64,000 nt of DNA from a virus, in IMG/VR virus record IMGVR_UViG_3300027869_000006, positions 1-64,000 of that record; one strand, given 5' to 3'. The notes under the pieces are model-generated. The model was not told the DNA's origin. It was given only the letters and a program-made list of their open reading frames with translations, and did no database searches. Made by a program: the position numbers and the translations under genes. The stretch's first letter is position 1. Each line of letters begins with the position of its first letter. This document shows positions 13,184 to 63,643 of this stretch, in pieces.

Positions 13184-14094
13184 TGAACCCCGTTCTCCCG
13201 CGCTATCCCGTCTATATTCCTAGTAAGGGTCGGGCTGAACAAGGGTTAACCGCGCGTTATCTCGTTGCTAGTGGCGTGCCATTTCATCTCGTCGTCGAAC
13301 CACCGGAAGCGGATGCCTATGCAGCACAGTTTGGGGCTGACCGTCTGCTCGTACTTCCATTTCATGATCTTGGCTTAGGGAGTATTCCAGCACGTAATTT
13401 CATTTGGGAACACGCGAAAGCGAGTGGAGCAGAGCGGCACTGGACACTCGATGATAATATGCGCTGCTTTTATCGGCGCTTTAAAGCGAGGCGTCTCTAT
13501 TGCGATGCAGGGATCGCGCTCCGCGTCTGCGAAGATTTTACCGACCGCTATGAGAATATCGCTATCGCGGGCTTAAACTACGCGATGTTCGTGCCAGATA
13601 AAGAGCGTATCCTTCCCCTCCAAATCAACTGCCATGTCTACTCCTGTATGCTGATCCTGAATAGCCTGCCGTATCGCTGGCGTGGCCGCTATAACGAAGA
13701 CACCGATTTCTGCCTGCAGGTACTAGCGAATGGGTGGTGTACTATCCTTCTCAATACCTTCGTCGTGGAGAAAATTGCGACAATGACGATGAAGGGTGGG
13801 AATATGACCACGCTCTATCAAGGCGATGGACGCCTCAAGATGGCTCGCTCTTTAGAGCGAGCCTGGCCAGGTATAGTTGAAACGAAGCGGCGCTTCCAGC
13901 GACCACAACATGTTATTAAAGATGGCTGGAAGAAGTTCGATACCAAACTGAAGTTAAAACCCGGTATTGATTTATCACGATTAGAGTCTAATGAATATGG
14001 CATGTCACTCGTGCAGGTTGCGGATTCGATCAAAAGCCCGCGTCTCCAGGGTCTGCTCGATGAGTGGCGAGAGACGCACGAGGAGCCGCTATGA
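13180..14094 (+). CDS. GREB1/TET-associated-like (TAGT) GT-A glycosyltransferase
   Basis: YPVYIPSKGRA, HWTLDDN, WRGRYNEDTD, MKGGN. Confidence 0.75.
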   Translation: MMNPVLPRYPVYIPSKGRAEQGLTARYLVASGVPFHLVVEPPEADAYAAQFGADRLLVLPFHDLGLGSIPARNFIWEHAKASGAERHWTLDDNMRCFYRRFKARRLYCDAGIALRVCEDFTDRYENIAIAGLNYAMFVPDKERILPLQINCHVYSCMLILNSLPYRWRGRYNEDTDFCLQVLANGWCTILLNTFVVEKIATMTMKGGNMTTLYQGDGRLKMARSLERAWPGIVETKRRFQRPQHVIKDGWKKFDTKLKLKPGIDLSRLESNEYGMSLVQVADSIKSPRLQGLLDEWRETHEEPL

Positions 14095-30421: not shown

Positions 30422-33400
30422 ATGGCAGGGAGCGACTTTTCTCTTGGTACGGCCTCAATTGGACTTGGGGTGAATACTGATGGATTAACCTCCGGGTTTG
30501 CGCGTGCCAAGGAGATGGTTGGGAGTTTTGGCGGTGCCGTCGGCGGACTACTGATTGGTGCGACCGTCGCAGCCGTTGGGCTAGGCGCTGCGACGGTCAA
30601 GATGGCAGGTGATTTTTCCGCATCTATGACCCAACTCGTGACGGGTGCTGGCGAATCACAATCCAACCTCAAACTCGTCTCCGATGGTATCCTCCAAATG
30701 GCCGGGACGACCGGCACCTCGACCAAAGACCTCGCAGCAGGTATGTATCTCATCGAGAGTAGCGGCCAGCATGGTGCACAAGCCCTGACAACGCTCCAAG
30801 CCGCCGCCGAGGGCGCAAAGGTAGGTGCAGCCTCGCTCGCCGAGGTTGCCAATGGCGTGACCACCATCATGACCGATTACGCCAGTGCGAATGTGACCGC
30901 CGCCAATGCCACCAATGCCCTCATCGAGGGTGTCGCGCTCGGCAAAGTCCACCTGGGTGACCTCTCTACTTCGATGGCAACCGTACTTCCTACGGCCTCC
31001 GCGCTTGGGATCGGACTCAATGATGTGATCGGGGCCATGTCCACCATGACCGCCGAAGGGGTTCCTGCCGCCAATGCCGCCACCTACTTGCGGCAAACCA
31101 TGATGTCCCTCGAAGCCCCGGCCAGTGCGGGGGCCAAAGCCATTGCTGCCATTGGACTGACGACCGCACAAGTTAGCGACGAGATGAAGGTCTCTCTCCC
31201 CGGTACCTTGCAGATGATTATGGATCACCTGGCCGCGACGTATACGGTCGGGTCCCCGCAATATATTGAAGCCCTCAAAAATATCGCCGGGGGGTCGAAG
31301 CAGATGCAAGGGATGCTCGACCTGACGGGGACGCACCTGGCCATTTTCAAGGATGATGTGCAAGCCGTTGCCGATCAAGTGAAGGCAGGCGGCGATCAGA
31401 TTGCTGGCTGGACGCTGGTCCAGGGCGACTTCAATCAGAAGATGGATGAGGCAAGAGGGGTCATCGAAGCCCTTGGCATCAAGATCGGGTCGGTACTTTT
31501 GCCGGTGGTCTCGCAACTGATGGGGTGGTTGACCCCGATGGTTTCCACGATTGGAGATCATCTGGTCGGGGATGTGACCAACCTGGCCGATGCCTTCCAG
31601 TCCGTCTTTGATCCGATGAGCCAGGTGCAGAGCGTGGCTAAACCCCTGGCCGATACCTTCGATCATGACGCAGCAATGGTGGACAACTTGACTGGAGCCA
31701 TGAACCCCTTCCAGCAAGCCATGTTCAATCTCAAGCCGGACCTCGCGGATATCGGCGGGATGTTCAAGACGGTCGGCGATGTCGTCTTCAACCAGGTCAT
31801 TCCAGCCGTGGTGGGGTTGGCCCAAAAAGTTGAGCCCATCATCACCGATTTCTTCAACTGGGATGAGAAAACCCACTTCATCAGTACCACCCTACACGAT
31901 CTGGGCGGGTTCGTGAGCGCCGTGGCCGGTGATATCGGCAATGACCTCGTCCCACCCATCAGGGCACTGCTCGGACATCTCGAGAACTGGCTTTCTTCTT
32001 CCAACATGATCCATGATGCCCTTGGATTCCTGGCAGGGGCGATTGGGGTTGTCTCCAGTGTACTGGGAACATTGATCGGCTGGGTTGGCGACTTCGTGGG
32101 GGGGCTGGAAAAGGGCAATCCCCTGGCGGTGGCACTTGGCATTGCGCTGGTGACGGTTGGCACGGCTATTGCGGGTATCAAGCTGACGGAGTTTGTGCTT
32201 GGGCTCCAGAACGCCTTTACGCAGGCTGGCGGACTCAGCGGTATCCTGGAGAAATTTATCAGTGATACCTTCCCCAATCTCGCTCGCTCCCTCGGCCTGG
32301 TCAAGACGGCTGAAGTTGAGGTCGGAACCACCGCCGAAACGACGATGGCCGAGGGAGTGGCCACGGGGGCGACGGCGGCAGAGGCTTCCCTCGCGGGTAT
32401 CGGTACTACTGCCGAAACCACGATGGCTGAAGGGGTCGCTACGGGGGCGGTAGAGTCAGTAACTTCGCTCGCGGAAGTCGGGACACAGGCAGAGATCACC
32501 GCCGATACCGTCAAGACCTCCTCACTGAGTATGGCCGCATCCATTGGCTTGATTGGGGGCGCGATTGGACTCGTCCTGGTTGCTATCCCGCTCATCCAAC
32601 AAGGGCTCGCTGCCACCAAACAGAATATGGATGATACCGCCAAAGGCTTGAGTACGCAGATTGATGCCGCTGCCTCCAAGATTCATGACTCCTTTATCCC
32701 GGAAATAGCGAACGTCAATACCATGTCGGTGGCCCAGATCAGTGACATGAAAGCGAAGATCGTCAGTGAATTGGAACAAATCACCGGCAAGAGTCAGAGT
32801 GATGCCGAAAAAATGGCGAATGACTGGATTTATGGGACACAACAAATGCAGACCCAGGTGTCTGCCAATCTTGCCACCATGTCACAGCAGGCCATCCAAT
32901 CCGCGCAGCAACTCGTCAGTGGCGTCGAGCAGGCCCTCGCACAAATGCAGACCAATTCCGCCTCTGATATGGAGAGCATGAAGGAAGGCATCACCTCAGA
33001 ACTGATCTCAACCTACCATCTCTCCTATAGCACCGCGACCCAGATGTCAAGCCAGTGGAGCGCTGAACTGCAAAAGATGCAGAATGCCTCCCCGCAGCAG
33101 ATGGCCAGTATGCGCCAGCAGATGATTGATGAGCTTCAGAAAACGCTTGGGCTTTCCACCCAGGACGCCACGAACATGGCCGATCAGTGGATTGCCCAGG
33201 TCATGCGTGAGAAAGATCAGACCACCTATAACGTCATGCAACTGCATGACCAGGTTGCCCAACAACTCCAAGATACCGAGCACCTTTCAGCCTCAGCGGC
33301 GTCATCGATGGCCGATCAGGTCATTGGATCAGTCCAACATATGAAGGATATGGGCATCTCCGATACCGTCGCCATGAAGATTGCCATCGCGGAGGTCATG

Positions 33401-57330: not shown

Positions 57331-57382
57331 GTGAGAGAGACCTCCCTTGACAACCACGTACAATGGGAAGAAGGAGAGAAGT

Positions 57383-58426
57383 ATGCCTGATTACCCCCTG
57401 GCTGAGGAACACTTTGTACCTCGATCATATATGTTCGATAGCAATGCATGCAAAGTTTTGGTAATTCACAAGACGGGTGGAGACGCAACCCCTGCGGCGA
57501 TCCTTCAAACGTTTCTCACGAACCCGGATCGACCATCGGTCCATTATGGCGTAGGCACAGATGGGAGTATCTGGCAGTACGTCCCTGAAGCACTCGGCGC
57601 GGGCGGGAACTGTTGCGTGGAACCGGGCTATGACCCATTCTGGGCACAATTTAACCCGATGGCTGTTGGGTCATCTTCTGGAACCAACCTGAATACAGTC
57701 ACACTCTCTCTTGAGCATTGCGATGCGGCACTTGACAATAGTACGCCACTTACCCCAACTCAGCAAGATGCGAGCTTCAAACTCATTGCCTACCTGGTCG
57801 CCAAGTATAGCATCCCCCTTTCACACATCAAGGGCCACAATACAATTGACCCACAGAGTCGCGCCCGTTGCCCAGGTAACTACCCCTGGCCCGCGTTATT
57901 TGCCTATCTACAAAATGGAGGGAATATGGCAGGAGTACCAATCGGCTGGCAATACGACCAGGCGACGCAAACATTGACGGACCCCAACGGTGGGAAGGTA
58001 GGTCCACCCTATAGCGCACACGTGTTAGCAAGTAACTGGGACCCGCATAACTTTCTTTGGATCGCCGCCTACCATACCAATCAGCTGGAAGCAGCGAACC
58101 CTGGCCTGGGTGCGGGGACACAAATCATCTTCTATGAGTCCATGCTGTGCGTGCCTGATAATCCCCCAGACCCGAACCTTGCGAACCTGAAGGGAAAAGT
58201 GGTCACGGAATATGTCGGGATTGAAGCGGCCTATGCCCGTAGTCAGTGGACCCGCTATTCGGGAATAGCCCAACAGTTTCAAACACAATTCACAGAGGAG
58301 CAGACAAAAAATACGGCCCTGACTGCCCAAGTCGCACAACTGGAAGCACAGATCGCCGCGCTCTCCCAACCCACGGCGGATGCACAGGCGATTGTGCAGA
58401 TCAAGCAGATTGTGGCGGCGCTATGA
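57383..58426 (+). CDS. endolysin, N-acetylmuramoyl-L-alanine amidase (Amidase_2) with C-terminal coiled coil
   Basis: VIHKTGG, SVHYGV, SLEHC, GH..IDP..R.RCPG. Confidence 0.88.
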   Translation: MPDYPLAEEHFVPRSYMFDSNACKVLVIHKTGGDATPAAILQTFLTNPDRPSVHYGVGTDGSIWQYVPEALGAGGNCCVEPGYDPFWAQFNPMAVGSSSGTNLNTVTLSLEHCDAALDNSTPLTPTQQDASFKLIAYLVAKYSIPLSHIKGHNTIDPQSRARCPGNYPWPALFAYLQNGGNMAGVPIGWQYDQATQTLTDPNGGKVGPPYSAHVLASNWDPHNFLWIAAYHTNQLEAANPGLGAGTQIIFYESMLCVPDNPPDPNLANLKGKVVTEYVGIEAAYARSQWTRYSGIAQQFQTQFTEEQTKNTALTAQVAQLEAQIAALSQPTADAQAIVQIKQIVAAL

Positions 58427-58560
58427 AGTGGTTTTTCAGATGGGTCCATCAAGTGATGTCTTTGTTACACAAGAGGCGCAGCTATAGCGAAACGATCCTG
58501 GCTGAGAAGCCGATCCGTTACTATCGACTCGATGGAAGTGACACAACACGTGAGCAATGA
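58423..58560 (+). CDS. small ORF carrying a LamG N-terminal remnant
   Basis: YSETILAEKPIRYYRL resembles YRTTILADNPLYYNR in the 52720 product. Confidence 0.4.
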   Translation: MKWFFRWVHQVMSLLHKRRSYSETILAEKPIRYYRLDGSDTTREQ

Positions 58561-59275
58561 AGAGTGCAAACTGATTGCATACCAACTCTATGATGGTGAT
58601 CTCCCCATGCAAATCGTTCCGGCACCGCGCAAACGGCAGTGGATGGATCAGACGCCACAGAGTTTTGCGAACCGTTGCCTCCCGCTCTTACTGGGAAATG
58701 CGAGCGGCTGGTGGCTCTTGAACACGCACGAGATACAGGTGACCTGGAACGGCGGCACTGATCTCTCCGCGCTCACCATCGCGGGTCGGGGTAGTTCGGA
58801 GACCGGCTATGCACTGAGCCATTTTGGTAACGGTCTCTTAACTTGGAATATTCCCCTGCTCTTTTCCACGCCCCCTGGATATAATTTGCTGGTACGTGGC
58901 CCTGCAAACTGGCCCAAAGACGGGGCATACGCACTGGACGGGCTTGTGGAGACAGATCACGCTGTGGCGACATGGACCATGAACTGGAAGATGACGCGGC
59001 CTGGCCTGACCGTCACCTTTGCCAAGGGCGAACCGATAGCACAAATCGTGCCACAGAAGCGTGGAGAACTAGAGACATTCACCCCGCAAGTACGGAACAT
59101 CAGAGAGGCACCAGAGTTACAAGCTGCATACAATGCGTGGGCATCTAGTCGCTCAACATTCAATATGGAACTGAAGAGACCAGGGTCAGAGGCAGTGAAG
59201 CGGCAATGGCAAAAGGATTACTTCCAAGCATCCCATCAAACAAAGGTCGCATTGAAGGAGTTCACAACTCCATGA
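58532..59275 (+). CDS. DUF6065-like protein
   Basis: R.WMD.T...FANRCLPL, SHFG.G, GPANWPKDG, VETD, WQKDYF. Confidence 0.75.
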   Translation: MEVTQHVSNEECKLIAYQLYDGDLPMQIVPAPRKRQWMDQTPQSFANRCLPLLLGNASGWWLLNTHEIQVTWNGGTDLSALTIAGRGSSETGYALSHFGNGLLTWNIPLLFSTPPGYNLLVRGPANWPKDGAYALDGLVETDHAVATWTMNWKMTRPGLTVTFAKGEPIAQIVPQKRGELETFTPQVRNIREAPELQAAYNAWASSRSTFNMELKRPGSEAVKRQWQKDYFQASHQTKVALKEFTTP

Positions 59276-59311: not shown

Positions 59312-59896
59312 ATGGCAACGACACCGACAAAAACCCCGAAGCAGCAAGCCTCACTCGCAGGCGTCTGGCAGGGCATTGAGGCACCAATCATCGGTATCCT
59401 CCTCTCCCTTGCCGTAGCTATTCAGCAGTATTTTAGTACCCATAGTGCCCCAAATTGGGGAGAACTGGGAATGATCCTGTTCCCGACCGTCATTGTTGGT
59501 ATTGTGCAAGCACTCAAGCAGTTCAATGCAACACTCGGGCAGGCATCAGTTCCCATCGTCACCGTCCCGCCGCCCGCACCGGTTGTCTCACCATCCGACA
59601 TTGCGGCAGCGATACGACAGCAGGTACCAGGACTGGTCATACAACAGCCACCGGCACCACCGTCGTTCATTGCGCCGTCAGTGCCACCAGGAGGATACGA
59701 TACGACGCTGGTCCAACCCCTCTCATTCGCCCCTCTGACCACGCCTGCCCAGCCACAACAACCGTACACGTGGTCACAGCCAGAACCATCCCCGACACTC
59801 ACGACACCTGCGCCAGTAATTACGCCGGTATTGTCACTGCCAAGTACGTTTCCGCAAACACTCGATTTACCAATCGTACGACCACAAATTGAGTAA
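59312..59896 (+). CDS. putative holin-like 2-TM protein with Pro-rich tail
   Basis: GGAGG RBS; two TM segments; near endolysin. Confidence 0.6.
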   Translation: MATTPTKTPKQQASLAGVWQGIEAPIIGILLSLAVAIQQYFSTHSAPNWGELGMILFPTVIVGIVQALKQFNATLGQASVPIVTVPPPAPVVSPSDIAAAIRQQVPGLVIQQPPAPPSFIAPSVPPGGYDTTLVQPLSFAPLTTPAQPQQPYTWSQPEPSPTLTTPAPVITPVLSLPSTFPQTLDLPIVRPQIE

Positions 59897-59897
59897 T

Positions 59898-59935
59898 AAT
59901 AAAGGGTACTACATCTGCATGTAGTACCCTTTATT
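59898..59935. terminator. bidirectional intrinsic terminator
   Basis: Perfect 17-bp IR AATAAAGGGTACTACAT-ctgc-ATGTAGTACCCTTTATT between convergent units. Confidence 0.85.
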
Positions 59936-59941
59936 CATCCC

Positions 59942-60129
59942 ATACCATACCGCATCCCGCCGGACTGCACCCCACCCAGCCTTGCCAGACATTACCCCGC
60001 ATCGCCACGCCTTACCCCACCGAACTACACCTTACCAACCAGACCATGCCGAACCCGACCGGACCACGCTATACCGTACCTTACCTTACTGAACCCAGCC
60101 AAGCCGGACCTCACCATACCTACCGTGCC
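59942..60129 (-). repeat. GGY-NN pentamer array C (38 units), putative guide RNA
   Basis: Minus strand GGCAC GGTA GGTAT GGTGA GGTCC GGCTT...; 5-nt period with two 4-nt slips. Confidence 0.9.
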
Positions 60130-60130
60130 A

Positions 60131-60349
60131 TTAAGCGTATCGTGTTTGGTCTGTCTCCCAGTTCACTAAACGTACAGGTGTCACATCTAAGTCTGTGATA
60201 GGAATGCCATACTTTTCTTCAGCTAAACTCAGTCCTTCCTGAGCATCACTAGCGGTTATCTCACCCACTATAGGCACCTGCTGCTTTCTTAGCTTGGCAT
60301 GCACGGTAGTGTCATGTCCCTTATACCAAACATCGAACCTATGCAACAT
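60131..60349 (-). CDS. 72-aa accessory protein coupled to the Cas7-like gene
   Basis: TAATG overlap at 60347-60351. Confidence 0.65.
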   Translation of the reverse strand: MLHRFDVWYKGHDTTVHAKLRKQQVPIVGEITASDAQEGLSLAEEKYGIPITDLDVTPVRLVNWETDQTRYA

Positions 60350-60897
60350 TACTTCACCTTTTCCCATGACACAAGAGCAAATCTCCCATACGGCCCTTTC
60401 TTTGCAGGACGGAAGTCACCAATGCCAACAAGTCGCCCTGCATCGGTGAGTATGTCACGGATAAGACGTTCACCAACTAGATCGGTATCAATCTGAACAT
60501 CAAACTCCATATTCCACTCATCGAACATTGGCCTGTGGCGTAGAATACGCCCCCCAGTCGCTTTAATGACAACAGCCCGTGAGTCCACATGCCATTCCCC
60601 TACCAGAGGAATTTCAAATGGGCTAACATAGACCCCTGCCGCTACATCAGTTGTCGCAGCCCTCCGTCCAATTTTGTGTCGTGATGCTGCTGCAATCATT
60701 GACTGCCGAATATTCTCAGCCGGATAGAATGGGCTATGTTCATTGGTATACAGGCGACTTGCCGCATCTTCATGAGGAGCCGGATATTCTTTCCGACCAT
60801 GTGTTCCTGAAGTTGCTTCCTCTGCCGCTGCCTCATGAAAACGATTCACGATGAGCGGCGTCAAACTCGTAATGTTGACCTTGTACGTTACAATCAT
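60349..60897 (-). CDS. minimal Cas7/RAMP-like protein (182 aa)
   Basis: YKVNITSLTPLIVN, YPAENIRQSM, RHRPMF..W, C-terminal G-loop GRLVGIGDFRPAKKGPYGRF; AAAGGA RBS before ATG 60897. Confidence 0.75.
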   Translation of the reverse strand: MIVTYKVNITSLTPLIVNRFHEAAAEEATSGTHGRKEYPAPHEDAASRLYTNEHSPFYPAENIRQSMIAAASRHKIGRRAATTDVAAGVYVSPFEIPLVGEWHVDSRAVVIKATGGRILRHRPMFDEWNMEFDVQIDTDLVGERLIRDILTDAGRLVGIGDFRPAKKGPYGRFALVSWEKVK

Positions 60898-60960: not shown

Positions 60961-60977
60961 GCGAAACAAAATGAACA

Positions 60978-61161
60978 AAACCATACCAGACCGGACCTCG
61001 CCAAACCCGGCCTTGCCAGACCGGGCCTTGCCAGACCGGGCCAAACCCGACTACACTAGACCTCATCATGCCACACCTCCCATACCATACCCATCCTTAC
61101 CGAACTGCGCCAGACCGCAACGTACCAGACCGCGGCAAGCCGGGCCGGACCCAACCTAACC
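60978..61161 (-). repeat. GGY-NN pentamer array B (37 units), putative guide RNA
   Basis: Plus strand NN-RCC units AAACC ATACC AGACC GGACC TCGCC...; one 4-nt slip at 61078-61081. Confidence 0.9.
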
Positions 61162-61172
61162 TATTCCTCAGC

Positions 61173-61370
61173 AAACCATGCTATACCCCACCTGACCGTA
61201 GCACTCCTTCCAAACCGCACCATACCCAACCAAGCAGGACCCCGCGTCACCGCACCTGATCGGGCCATACCCCACCTGACCAAGCCGTGCCTACCTTGCC
61301 GCACCAAACCTCACCTCACTCAGTCTTGCCTCGCTGGACCTAGTCGCACCGAACCTGACCTTGCCGTGCC
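61173..61370 (-). repeat. GGY-NN pentamer array A (40 units), putative guide RNA
   Basis: Begins ATGGCACGG like array C; two 4-nt slips; 11-nt linker to array B. Confidence 0.9.
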
Positions 61371-62005
61371 ATAATCCTGCTATAGGCCAATTTCACGCAG
61401 AACTCAACGTCATTCCATACCTGGGAGCCAGTGAAGCGAAGAACGTACCAGCCTTGATCTTCAATCGTATGCTGTCGCATATAGTCTCTATTTCGGTCTC
61501 TCTTGTGACTATGGAACGCTTGCCCATCAAGTTCGATTACTATCTTTGCTTCAACATGGGCAAAGTCTACACGATACTTACTAATCCGATGCTGTCGCTC
61601 AAGAGGGATATCTGGATACAGCAGGCACCATGCTTCATAAAAGGCTTCCTCGATGGGACTTCCATTCTTGACGGATTGCTGAATTTCCCGTAAACGATTA
61701 CGAGCCTCATTAAGTGCAGCCTCACGTTGTTGATTAGCAAGTCGCAAGGCTTCTACTCGCTCTGCTTCTAGTGCTTGACGACGTTCTAGGGCCTGCTCTC
61801 GCTTCTCCCGAATGGTTGCTACTTCAATCTCTCTCTGGACAGATTGCTGATGCTCATTCGCACGACGCTTCAACTCCCTAGCTTCCTGAATCATACTAGC
61901 TTTCTCTGCCGCAAGTTGACGTTGTATGGCAAGTTCATGCTCTCTGTCAGCTTGAAGTTTTCGTTGTTGTTCTTGATAGTCGTTGAATGCTTGCCAGTCC
62001 ATCAT
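61340..62005 (-). CDS. coiled-coil plus DUF559/Vsr-like PD-(D/E)XK endonuclease
   Basis: SPIE..QHRISKYRVDF..IVIELDGQAFH..RD..R..GWYVLRFTGSQV. Confidence 0.85.
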   Translation of the reverse strand: MMDWQAFNDYQEQQRKLQADREHELAIQRQLAAEKASMIQEARELKRRANEHQQSVQREIEVATIREKREQALERRQALEAERVEALRLANQQREAALNEARNRLREIQQSVKNGSPIEEAFYEAWCLLYPDIPLERQHRISKYRVDFAHVEAKIVIELDGQAFHSHKRDRNRDYMRQHTIEDQGWYVLRFTGSQVWNDVEFCVKLAYSRIMARQGQVRCD

Positions 62006-62007
62006 GC

Positions 62008-62181
62008 TTATTGTTCTCGTTTTGTAGGCTTTTGCTGTTTCTGTTGTACTCGTTCTAATTCTTGGTTCGCTAAACGGTCAAGAAGACTCACGATACTCTC
62101 CCCTGTGATGGCATGAAGCATACGCAAGGTGGTAAGTGTCCTTGTCCAGATGCGAGTTGTTTTGTAGTCATCGGTAGCCAT
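62008..62181 (-). CDS. 57-aa ribbon-helix-helix-like regulator, leaderless (not in ORF track)
   Basis: MATDDYKTTRIWTRTLTTLRMLHAITGESIVSLLDRLANQELERV...; ATG at the predicted TSS. Confidence 0.7.
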   Translation of the reverse strand: MATDDYKTTRIWTRTLTTLRMLHAITGESIVSLLDRLANQELERVQQKQQKPTKREQ

Positions 62182-62187
62182 GAAGTT

Positions 62188-62216
62188 ATTTTACTACAAA
62201 CAAGTGTTCTTGTCAA
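62188..62216 (-). promoter_or_regulatory. consensus sigma70 promoter of the Cas7-like cassette
   Basis: TTGACA(62216-62211)-N17-TAAAAT(62193-62188). Confidence 0.8.
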
Positions 62217-62276
62217 GAGGAAAAGAAGACGCCCTTGACACAAGCATATACTAAGAGCAGAAGGGGGAATTTTTCT

Positions 62277-62837
62277 TTGGAACGCGGGTCCGTTATTCTT
62301 TTTGAGAAGGATGGCAGTCTCTTCAATTGGCTCATCACGAAAGCAACTCATGGTCCCTATGTCCATGTGGAAATTTGCCTGGGCGAGGAACGCCTGATCG
62401 GTGCTCACGGTAACCGTCGCGGCATCTATGAGCGTGATTGGGCCGATGCACCTTCGTTAGTGACGGAGGTCTCTCTCTCCCCCTATGCCGATGAAGAGCA
62501 CATCGAGCAGGCCCTTACCTGGGCGCAAGAGCAACAGGGGCATCCCTATGGATGGTGGGATATCGCCAGTCAGTCCATCAAGTTCTTGTGGCCAACGACA
62601 CCGCTCCGGTTCAGCAAGTCAGACGCATGGGGGTGTGCAGACTATGTGACCCGCTATCTGATACAAGCAGGGGTGGCCTTGCCAGAAGACTTCATGGACC
62701 CTGGGAAAAACTCGCCCAACGATATTGGACGGTTGTTCCATCTCGTTCCACAACGGCCACAACGCATCAGAAAACGGGAGAGAGAGTTGAGGAAAGGTCA
62801 TGCCATTGCCGCATTTGCCGCCTCCAGACGAGGATGA
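62277..62837 (+). CDS. permuted papain-like (YiiX/YaeF-type NlpC/P60) amidase/peptidase
   Basis: His before Cys: GPYVHVEI, GHPY, WGCADYV, SPND; TTG start after AGGGGG. Confidence 0.7.
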   Translation: MERGSVILFEKDGSLFNWLITKATHGPYVHVEICLGEERLIGAHGNRRGIYERDWADAPSLVTEVSLSPYADEEHIEQALTWAQEQQGHPYGWWDIASQSIKFLWPTTPLRFSKSDAWGCADYVTRYLIQAGVALPEDFMDPGKNSPNDIGRLFHLVPQRPQRIRKRERELRKGHAIAAFAASRRG

Positions 62838-63488: not shown

Positions 63489-63643
63489 AGCCGAGGTTCC
63501 CATCCATTACATACATGCCCAGCATCGCCTCGTCTTCACAAGGGTGCTGGGCATGGTTATGTTGGTGCCGGTGGCAGGAAATGAGCCTGCGCCTCCGGGT
63601 TTGTAGCCCGGCGCTCTCTGAGCTTCACCGGCATAGGCTCTCC

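Follow-up and report, generated by a model that had tools for sequence, protein, structure and literature searches.

Two guides of a minus-strand VIPR cassette, vr5 and vr6, read as descriptions of alleles of the two genes bordering the cassette which this phage does not carry, and the guide-gene relation was far beyond chance for both of them. Judged by codon comparison, the resident alleles are spared, and nearly all of the differences that would spare them are protein-neutral, which is the strongest sentence that the data allow. On balance, it is probable that vr5 and vr6 are aimed at the border-gene alleles of related phages, and that the sparing of the phage's own copies is the footprint of selection against self-targeting.

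The window analysed was the first 64 kb (64,000 nucleotides) of a single-contig virus record of 109,768 bp from a soil metagenome. The cassette was located at 59.9-62.2 kb on the minus strand and was flanked on both sides by plus-strand genes. From its head to its end, the cassette contained the following features.

62188 to 62216, minus strand: promoter-like site TTGACA-17-TAAAAT at the head of the cassette (11 of 12 matches).
62008 to 62181, minus strand: 57-aa ORF, the first of the cassette (ORF list).
61340 to 62005, minus strand: accessory gene encoding a coiled coil and a DUF559/Vsr-like endonuclease domain (Pfam PF04480, E=1.3e-15).
60973 to 61370, minus strand: upstream vrRNA array with vr1-vr4, staggered and with 1-nt register slips (array parsing).
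60349 to 60897, minus strand: vipr gene encoding a RAMP-like protein of 182 aa (phrog_4652, E=7e-17; 120 homologues).
60131 to 60367, minus strand: 78-aa ORF overlapping the vipr stop (ORF list).
59937 to 60124, minus strand: second array, which holds vr5 and vr6 (array parsing).
59901 to 59932, no strand assigned: inverted repeat with perfectly matching 14-bp arms and a 4-nt loop, located between the stop of the left gene and the second array (read directly).

The 109,768-bp genome contained six pentamer runs, each with 16-20 units; they were confined to the cassette and lay on the minus strand without exception. Homologues of the DUF559 accessory gene adjoined vipr in 10 related loci. The 57-aa ORF had no family match in Pfam and further family searches, and the 78-aa ORF had no Pfam or PHROG family match. 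The inverted repeat at 59901-59932 is probably a two-way terminator; it was absent from the calls of a simple terminator scan. Guides vr1-vr4 had no own-genome counterpart above permutation level. Within the upstream array, vr4 (60986-61042) contained a 15-nt unit repeated 3.8 times with the NN cycle TT-AG-GG and would read a target with a 9-nt period. Elsewhere in the window, ARAGORN called a tRNA-Cys on the minus strand at 63563-63632 (Rfam tRNA, 60.5 bits) with the anticodon ACA and not the usual GCA; a Cys tRNA with A34 is unusual. In addition, a 78-bp tandem repeat of two copies with 76% identity was located within a long ORF region at 32322-32474.

By homology and layout, this cassette can be added to the VIPR family as a new member. 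When a profile was built from 52 members of the family, the window protein among them, it matched the PDB entry 36pp, 'SUSP1 Vipr protein', with an E-value of 2.3e-15, and the invariant residues of the family were G154, G158, G160, D161, R163, P164, G168 and G171. The VIPR features present were Vipr itself, GGY/NN arrays on the vipr strand, the 1-nt skip rule falling on the wobble position and an accessory gene with a nuclease domain. Under the skip rule, reading NN as codon positions 1-2 gave rank-1 matches to two genes. VIPR guides have been described as GGY/NN repeats in which each NN pair reads two bases of the target and a third base, usually that at the codon wobble position, is skipped (bioRxiv 10.64898/2026.04.26.720920,.720927 and 10.64898/2026.10.15.759431), and a natural target was defined by an NN match of at least 80% (bioRxiv 10.64898/2026.04.26.720920). 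In the published VIPR work, perturbed NN pairing abolished silencing and no natural self-hit reached 80%. One of the preprints also argued that a code which skips the wobble leaves no escape that keeps the protein unchanged.

The cassette has in common with the type II VIPR systems of Escherichia phage SUSP1 and a P. fulva prophage, and with the nuclease-bearing types, a Vipr homologue and pentamer arrays on both sides of vipr. Staggered guide boundaries, a 3' tail, the two-read-one-skip code on the wobble, coding-sequence targets in rival phage elements and the lack of a self-hit at an NN match of at least 80% are also common to published VIPR. However, the targets here would be alleles of the phage's own neighbouring genes, whereas the published targets are satellites, prophage regulators and other vipr genes, and none of the published candidate targets was covered by homology of the carrier phage itself. 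Nuclease-bearing VIPR types were published as host defence, whereas this nuclease-bearing cassette sits in a phage. By term search, sibling-allele targeting of the carrier's own neighbours, protection through six-fold codons or start codons and guide-antidote linkage are absent from the 2026 VIPR preprints cited above.

The left flanking gene and the guide portion that corresponds to it were delimited as follows.

59312 to 59896, plus strand: left flanking gene, 194 aa, with two hydrophobic helices and a Pro-rich tail (ORF list).
59972 to 60036, minus strand: guide portion of vr6, 13 GGYNN units whose NN pairs spell the left target (array parsing, codon comparison).
59937 to 59971, minus strand: 3' tail of vr6 (array parsing).
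59825 to 59863, plus strand: vr6 target as carried by the resident, spanning codons 172-184 of the left flanking gene (codon comparison).

The left gene product had no Pfam or PHROG family match, and a search of 5.8 billion proteins recovered only the protein itself; it can be called holin-like by position only. An Amidase_2 endolysin-like gene and a DUF6065 gene were located upstream of it at 57347-59275, which places the cassette at the edge of a probable lysis module. The NN pairs of vr6, written for the plus strand, were CC CA TT AG TT CC TC AC TT CC GA AC TT, and the resident codons at 59825-59863 were CCG GTA TTG TCA CTG CCA AGT ACG TTT CCG CAA ACA CTC (PVLSLPSTFPQTL). Seven of the 13 dinucleotides and 17 of the 26 bases were identical, and 11 of the 13 residues were compatible. 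The original prediction had counted four of the six mismatches as six-fold codon swaps, and codon comparison bore this out (AG against TCA, TT against CTG, TC against AGT and TT against CTC); the mismatches outside the codon families were CA against GTA and GA against CAA. The tail of vr6 did not match the left gene (its first six or seven units all mismatched) and was common to the tail at 61077-61111, at the end of the upstream-array guide that ends at 61082 (GGTAT GGTAT GGG).

The right flanking gene showed a comparable relation to vr5, here around the start codon.

62277 to 62837, plus strand: right flanking gene, 186 aa, with a TTG start 9 nt after GGGGG (weak match to phrog_1128; same start in the protein database).
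60041 to 60120, minus strand: vr5 guide, 16 units, covering one upstream triplet and codons 1-15 of a right-gene allele (array parsing, codon comparison).
62274 to 62321, plus strand: vr5 target as carried by the resident, codons 1-15 together with the triplet that precedes the TTG start (codon comparison).

The only homologues of the right gene recovered from the 5.8 billion proteins had identities of 49% and 43%. Compared with 62274-62321, vr5 (60041-60120) was identical at 6 of 16 dinucleotides and 20 of 32 bases, and its 15 codon units (60046-60120) matched 62277-62321 at 6 of 15 dinucleotides. The differences predicted earlier for this target, a Leu swap (TT against CTT), a Ser swap (TC against AGT) and AT against a TTG start, were all recovered by codon comparison. 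The other six mismatches were all conservative (T/S, I/V, V/I, Q/K, N/D and I/L).

Chance resemblance of short guides to nearby genes can be regarded as extremely improbable. At the nucleotide level the resident sites were not outliers, with 65% (vr6) and 67% (vr5) of the read bases matching, no better than the best random sites in the same genome. However, at the amino-acid level both sites ranked first of about 219,450 six-frame positions by wide margins (BLOSUM62 scores of 57 for vr6 and 54 for vr5 against 39 for the next best in each case), and the 11 of 13 compatible residues of the vr6 site were unique across these positions, the next best having 7 of 13. Both sites were also at the borders of the cassette, one of them in register with a start codon. 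The genome-wide amino-acid ranks of both sites thus effectively refute chance resemblance.

The low nucleotide match also bears on a second alternative, in which weak VIPR binding to the phage's own flanking genes would time or damp their expression. Both targets are immediate neighbours of the cassette and one of them covers a start codon, where binding would block expression, as such autoregulation would have it. However, for all seven guide segments the best own-genome matches reached 60-65% of read bases and no self-target had an NN match of at least 80%. Since the read-base identity of 65-67% at the resident sites is that of random background and lies below the 80% level, the phage does not appear to target itself. 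The published loss of silencing upon NN perturbation, together with the lack of natural self-hits at 80%, likewise speaks against autoregulation. A related guide with the same layout (L098, below) had its perfect target in a sibling phage and not in its own genome, and we consider autoregulation very unlikely.

The differences themselves could also be the outcome of ordinary divergence, with the guides targeting a relative of about 70% identity at synonymous saturation and no selection beyond the non-persistence of self-matching guides. The peptides implied by the guides were about 71% identical to the resident ones (20 of 28 residues; 11 of 13 left and 9 of 15 right), as this alternative would require. 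The swaps were assessed against a conservative null of full synonymous saturation, conditioned on the guide dinucleotide and on the codon usage of this genome (AGY 39% of Ser, TTR 20% of Leu and AGR 22% of Arg codons). Under this null the 6 swaps observed at 8 conserved Ser/Leu/Arg sites compared with 4.8 expected (P=0.29), again in line with ordinary divergence, whereas against empirical backgrounds of 0.37, 0.27 and 0.12 the P-values were 0.034, 0.006 and 7e-5. The verdict on a swap excess in this phage is therefore set wholly by the distance to its unseen target phage. Because AG can stand for Ser or Arg and TT for Leu or Phe, a target allele could also differ from the resident by amino-acid replacement at some of the sites counted as swaps. 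That the resident codons at these sites would be unusual for the genome was rejected: AGT, TCA, CTG, CTC and CTT are ordinary codons here, AGT being the commonest Ser codon and CTN making up 80% of Leu codons, which is also what ordinary divergence would leave. On the other side, the Leu positions of vr5 and vr6 read TT in four of four cases despite TTR making up 20% of the Leu codons of this genome, which would be odd for a random relative.

The empirical rates of codon-family switching were obtained from 136 non-redundant VIPR-bearing loci, of which 1,785 ORFs were compared all against all, and were as follows for conserved residues.

40-80% amino-acid identity: Ser switched in 34-44%, Leu in 33-44% and Arg in 28-34%.
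80-90% amino-acid identity: Ser switched in 21%, Leu in 30% and Arg in 27%.
90-97% amino-acid identity: Ser switched in 9%, Leu in 18% and Arg in 9%.
Above 97% amino-acid identity: Ser switched in 1.5%, Leu in 4% and Arg in 2%.

The premise that TCN/AGY switches are rare thus held for close relatives (1.5% above 97% identity) and failed at the divergence implied here, since conserved Ser codons switched in 34-44% of cases at 40-80% identity. Switching at such rates favours ordinary divergence as the source of the swaps in this phage.

A survey of the family gave a different balance. A total of 174 loci encoding Vipr relatives were fetched and their arrays parsed (single loci are given below by their L numbers). 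Guides resembled genes of their own locus in 65 windows with at least 8 of 10 units compatible, compared to 10-17 when the unit order was shuffled, and these own-locus sites were close to the arrays (combined P=3.7e-5; 4.9e-4 without this phage). Detection by compatibility favours neither swaps nor identities, because both count equally. Across 13 other loci, family swaps occurred at 17 of 25 conserved Ser/Leu/Arg sites compared to 10.5 expected at saturation (P=0.0023). False hits, with 0.44 as their swap fraction, may account for about a quarter of this set, and the count rests on a longest-ORF choice between overlapping readings, without which there were 17 swapped and 16 unchanged sites. 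Detection on the non-six-fold units alone was too noisy for this purpose (30 real against 4-12 permuted hits, with mixed reading frames). The excess came from sites at which the guide reads CT or CG and the resident of its own locus has a rare TTR or AGR codon (9 of 11 for Leu, P=1.3e-4). Neither this pattern nor the family-wide excess over the saturation null is readily explained by ordinary divergence. Overall, the survey supports a swap pattern avoiding the carrier's own guides that recurs across the VIPR family and is plausible, though unproven, for this phage. The proposed selection against self-targeting therefore found support in the 13 other loci (P=0.002) and in the triple of L098 described next, and not in the counts from this phage alone (P=0.29).

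Triples of guide, target and resident allele were sought by an all-against-all gapped search of guides and loci, and several were found. In the clearest of them, a solo array of L098 (9624-9723) had a perfect match in L095, at codons 1-15 of a gene (15 of 15 units), whereas the L098 allele of this gene, 35 bp from the array, matched its own guide at only 9 of 15. Within this target window all three Leu codons were swapped, in addition to the replacements P>A, I>L and Q>A. Swaps between L098 and L095 thus numbered 3 of 3 in the target window against 3 of 77 conserved six-fold sites over the next 470 aligned codons (P=2.4e-4). Such a concentration of differences in the target window of a close pair counts against ordinary divergence, and to judge from the sequences this triple shows directly the scenario that the original prediction had put forward. 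A locus search for further alleles of the L095 gene recovered L178, array-less and 58% identical overall, which matched the L098 guide at 13 of 15 units. In L108, a second array-bearing lineage with 47% identity, codon 2 is GCC, and TTR-TTG stands opposite the units of its own guide that read CT-CT. The array-bearing L098 and L108 keep TTR-TTG where both of their guides read CT-CT, whereas the array-less L095 and L178 keep CTN-CTN; in these two array-less loci the upstream gene abuts the target start. At the start of the gene shared by L108 and L179 (L108 about 13808-13815, minus strand), the array-bearing allele had GTG compared to ATG in array-less alleles. The GTG start of L108 parallels the TTG start at 62277 of the window, which lies under a guide unit reading AT.

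The manner in which the spared alleles arose is a separate matter. In the L098/L095 target window the wobble bases, which the guide ignores, were also hyper-diverged (0.67 against 0.18, P=8e-5), and 28 of 471 sliding windows were equally diverged at the read positions. The wobble hyper-divergence makes an old, maintained or co-transferred immune flank a better fit than point recoding of recent date. Target windows in five to seven distant triples (45-78% identity) were no more diverged than the rest of the gene, which agrees with ordinary divergence; general divergence alone gave 25-50% unit mismatches there, and the guides sat on conserved stretches. In the pooled triples, silent swaps made up 7 of 28 mismatched units inside target windows and 45 of 661 outside (P=0.003), an excess that would follow if the guides lie on stretches in which amino acids are not free to change. 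In this phage, the differences between the resident alleles and the guides far outnumber those that escape would be expected to require, and at the right target they are mostly amino-acid replacements, as plain divergence would give; both points speak against selection against self-targeting. Taking the two sides together, ordinary divergence without further selection is a serious possibility, though we hold it to be an unlikely one.

Under the preferred reading, selection against self-targeting, selection would act on combinations of a guide with a linked allele and need not involve stepwise recoding of the resident gene. Vipr would polymerise on the GGY units of vr5 and vr6, as known from the VIPR literature, and the exposed NN pairs, by homology, would recognise the 3' region of the left gene and the start of the right gene in a sibling phage. 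Binding may then silence the sibling genes, or the DUF559 protein may cut them, while the alleles of the carrier would escape with 6 of 13 and 9 of 15 read dinucleotides differing. Because the proteins are conserved and the code is wobble-blind, the cheap differences would be swaps within the Ser, Leu and Arg families, an alternative start and conservative replacements. Guide and immune allele would be inherited together, since they are only 0.1-2.2 kb apart, and tight linkage between a guide and its spared allele would prevent recombination into a self-targeting genome, which is consistent with the proximity of own-locus sites to arrays in the survey.

A further and more tentative proposal, which we regard as doubtful, is that a natural RNA-guided silence-or-cleave-and-rescue module, made up of the cassette together with the spared genes on its two sides, selfishly drives its own spread. 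In mixed infections, vr5, vr6 and the DUF559 nuclease would disable the border alleles of cassette-less relatives, and only genomes with the cassette and the recoded flanks, whether carried already or acquired through recombination, would keep both genes working. Six-fold codons and alternative starts would provide the built-in loophole under a wobble-blind code.

Two known systems have a similar arrangement. The free-standing homing endonucleases of T-even phages (seg, mob) are selfish cassettes between conserved genes that attack a neighbouring gene in cassette-less relatives; the carrier escapes because its own copy differs in sequence, and the flanks are co-inherited with the cassette. Relatives that lack the guides and have sensitive alleles at the corresponding locus were found for the solo array of L098 (L095 and L178) and, in the collections searched, not for the cassette of this phage. 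However, recognition is by protein in seg/mob homing, where cleavage and co-conversion have been demonstrated, whereas recognition by the VIPR cassette would be by RNA and is known here from sequence alone. In synthetic cleave-and-rescue or toxin-antidote CRISPR drives, the guides attack an important gene, and a recoded copy of this gene that they cannot recognise is carried in tight linkage with them. Those drives are engineered in insects with Cas9, whereas the cassette would be a natural phage counterpart that can be dodged silently only at six-fold codons. Among VIPR elements, the solo or orphan vrRNAs of VIPR-null phages and satellites (bioRxiv 10.64898/2026.10.15.759431) resemble the lone guides of L098 and L108, which lie far from vipr. 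However, the lone arrays of L098 and L108 adjoin the gene against which they are directed, whereas the published solo guides are decoys or are aimed at the vipr or vrRNA loci of rivals and no link to a spared resident allele was described for them.

The alleles that vr5 and vr6 describe were sought in several collections. The 5-kb region had no blastn match among 50,697 phage records, and the flanking genes had no tblastn match in the phage records or in the 174 related VIPR loci. The exact guide pattern of vr5 and vr6 was not found in IMG/VR, and IUPAC union patterns covering guide, resident or mosaic alleles gave no hits in IMG/VR, JGI metagenomes and GTDB genomes. Protein-guided locus searches in IMG/VR recovered no target allele of the flanking genes, and across all collections searched, 49% was the highest identity reached by a homologue of the two genes. 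The target phage of vr5 and vr6 is thus hypothetical, since guide-matching alleles were found in no collection searched. The locus itself was present in one DNA sequencing run only (assembled contigs, the likely source), with no variants or joints, and no RNA sequencing runs were listed for it.

The first descriptions of VIPR date from 2026 and present the wobble-skipping code as one from which there is no escape without protein change. If phages routinely target sibling alleles of the genes adjoining a guide and spare their own copy by Ser/Leu/Arg family swaps, alternative starts and mild replacements, this would explain how self is told from non-self in an RNA-guided system that lacks a PAM. 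The claim that there is no silent escape from VIPR would have to be qualified, and the layout would be a natural case of a poison with a linked antidote, as in engineered cleave-and-rescue drives. VIPR-resistant genes could then be designed by a simple rule, by which unseen alleles of rivals could also be predicted from guides.

Several minor observations were made in the related loci. L098 and L094 were both located on the IMG/VR contig 3300021475_000019 (52,042 bp), which carried two vipr loci about 43 kb apart with 82-91% identity and whose first 127 bases recurred exactly near its end. This contig looks like an assembly that ran through two strains occurring together, or like a long duplication that has diverged; the guide and the spared allele were on one strain and the sensitive allele on the other. 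In L112 and L113 (9749-9811), two different guides were directed at adjacent stretches of a single 199-aa gene adjoining vipr: run 1 of L045 matched it at 8 of 8 units, and the loci's own run 0 was a near-match with Leu and Arg swaps. Run 0 of L113 had no guide-perfect match in IMG/VR. VIPR conflict seems to concentrate on the 199-aa gene. Finally, run 0 of L032, L033, L090, L092 and L093, located just upstream of vipr, matched the vipr starts of L067, L097, L109 and L110 at 8 of 8 units, and the carriers' own vipr differed at the guide site by an I>V replacement and a TTG>CTA Leu swap.
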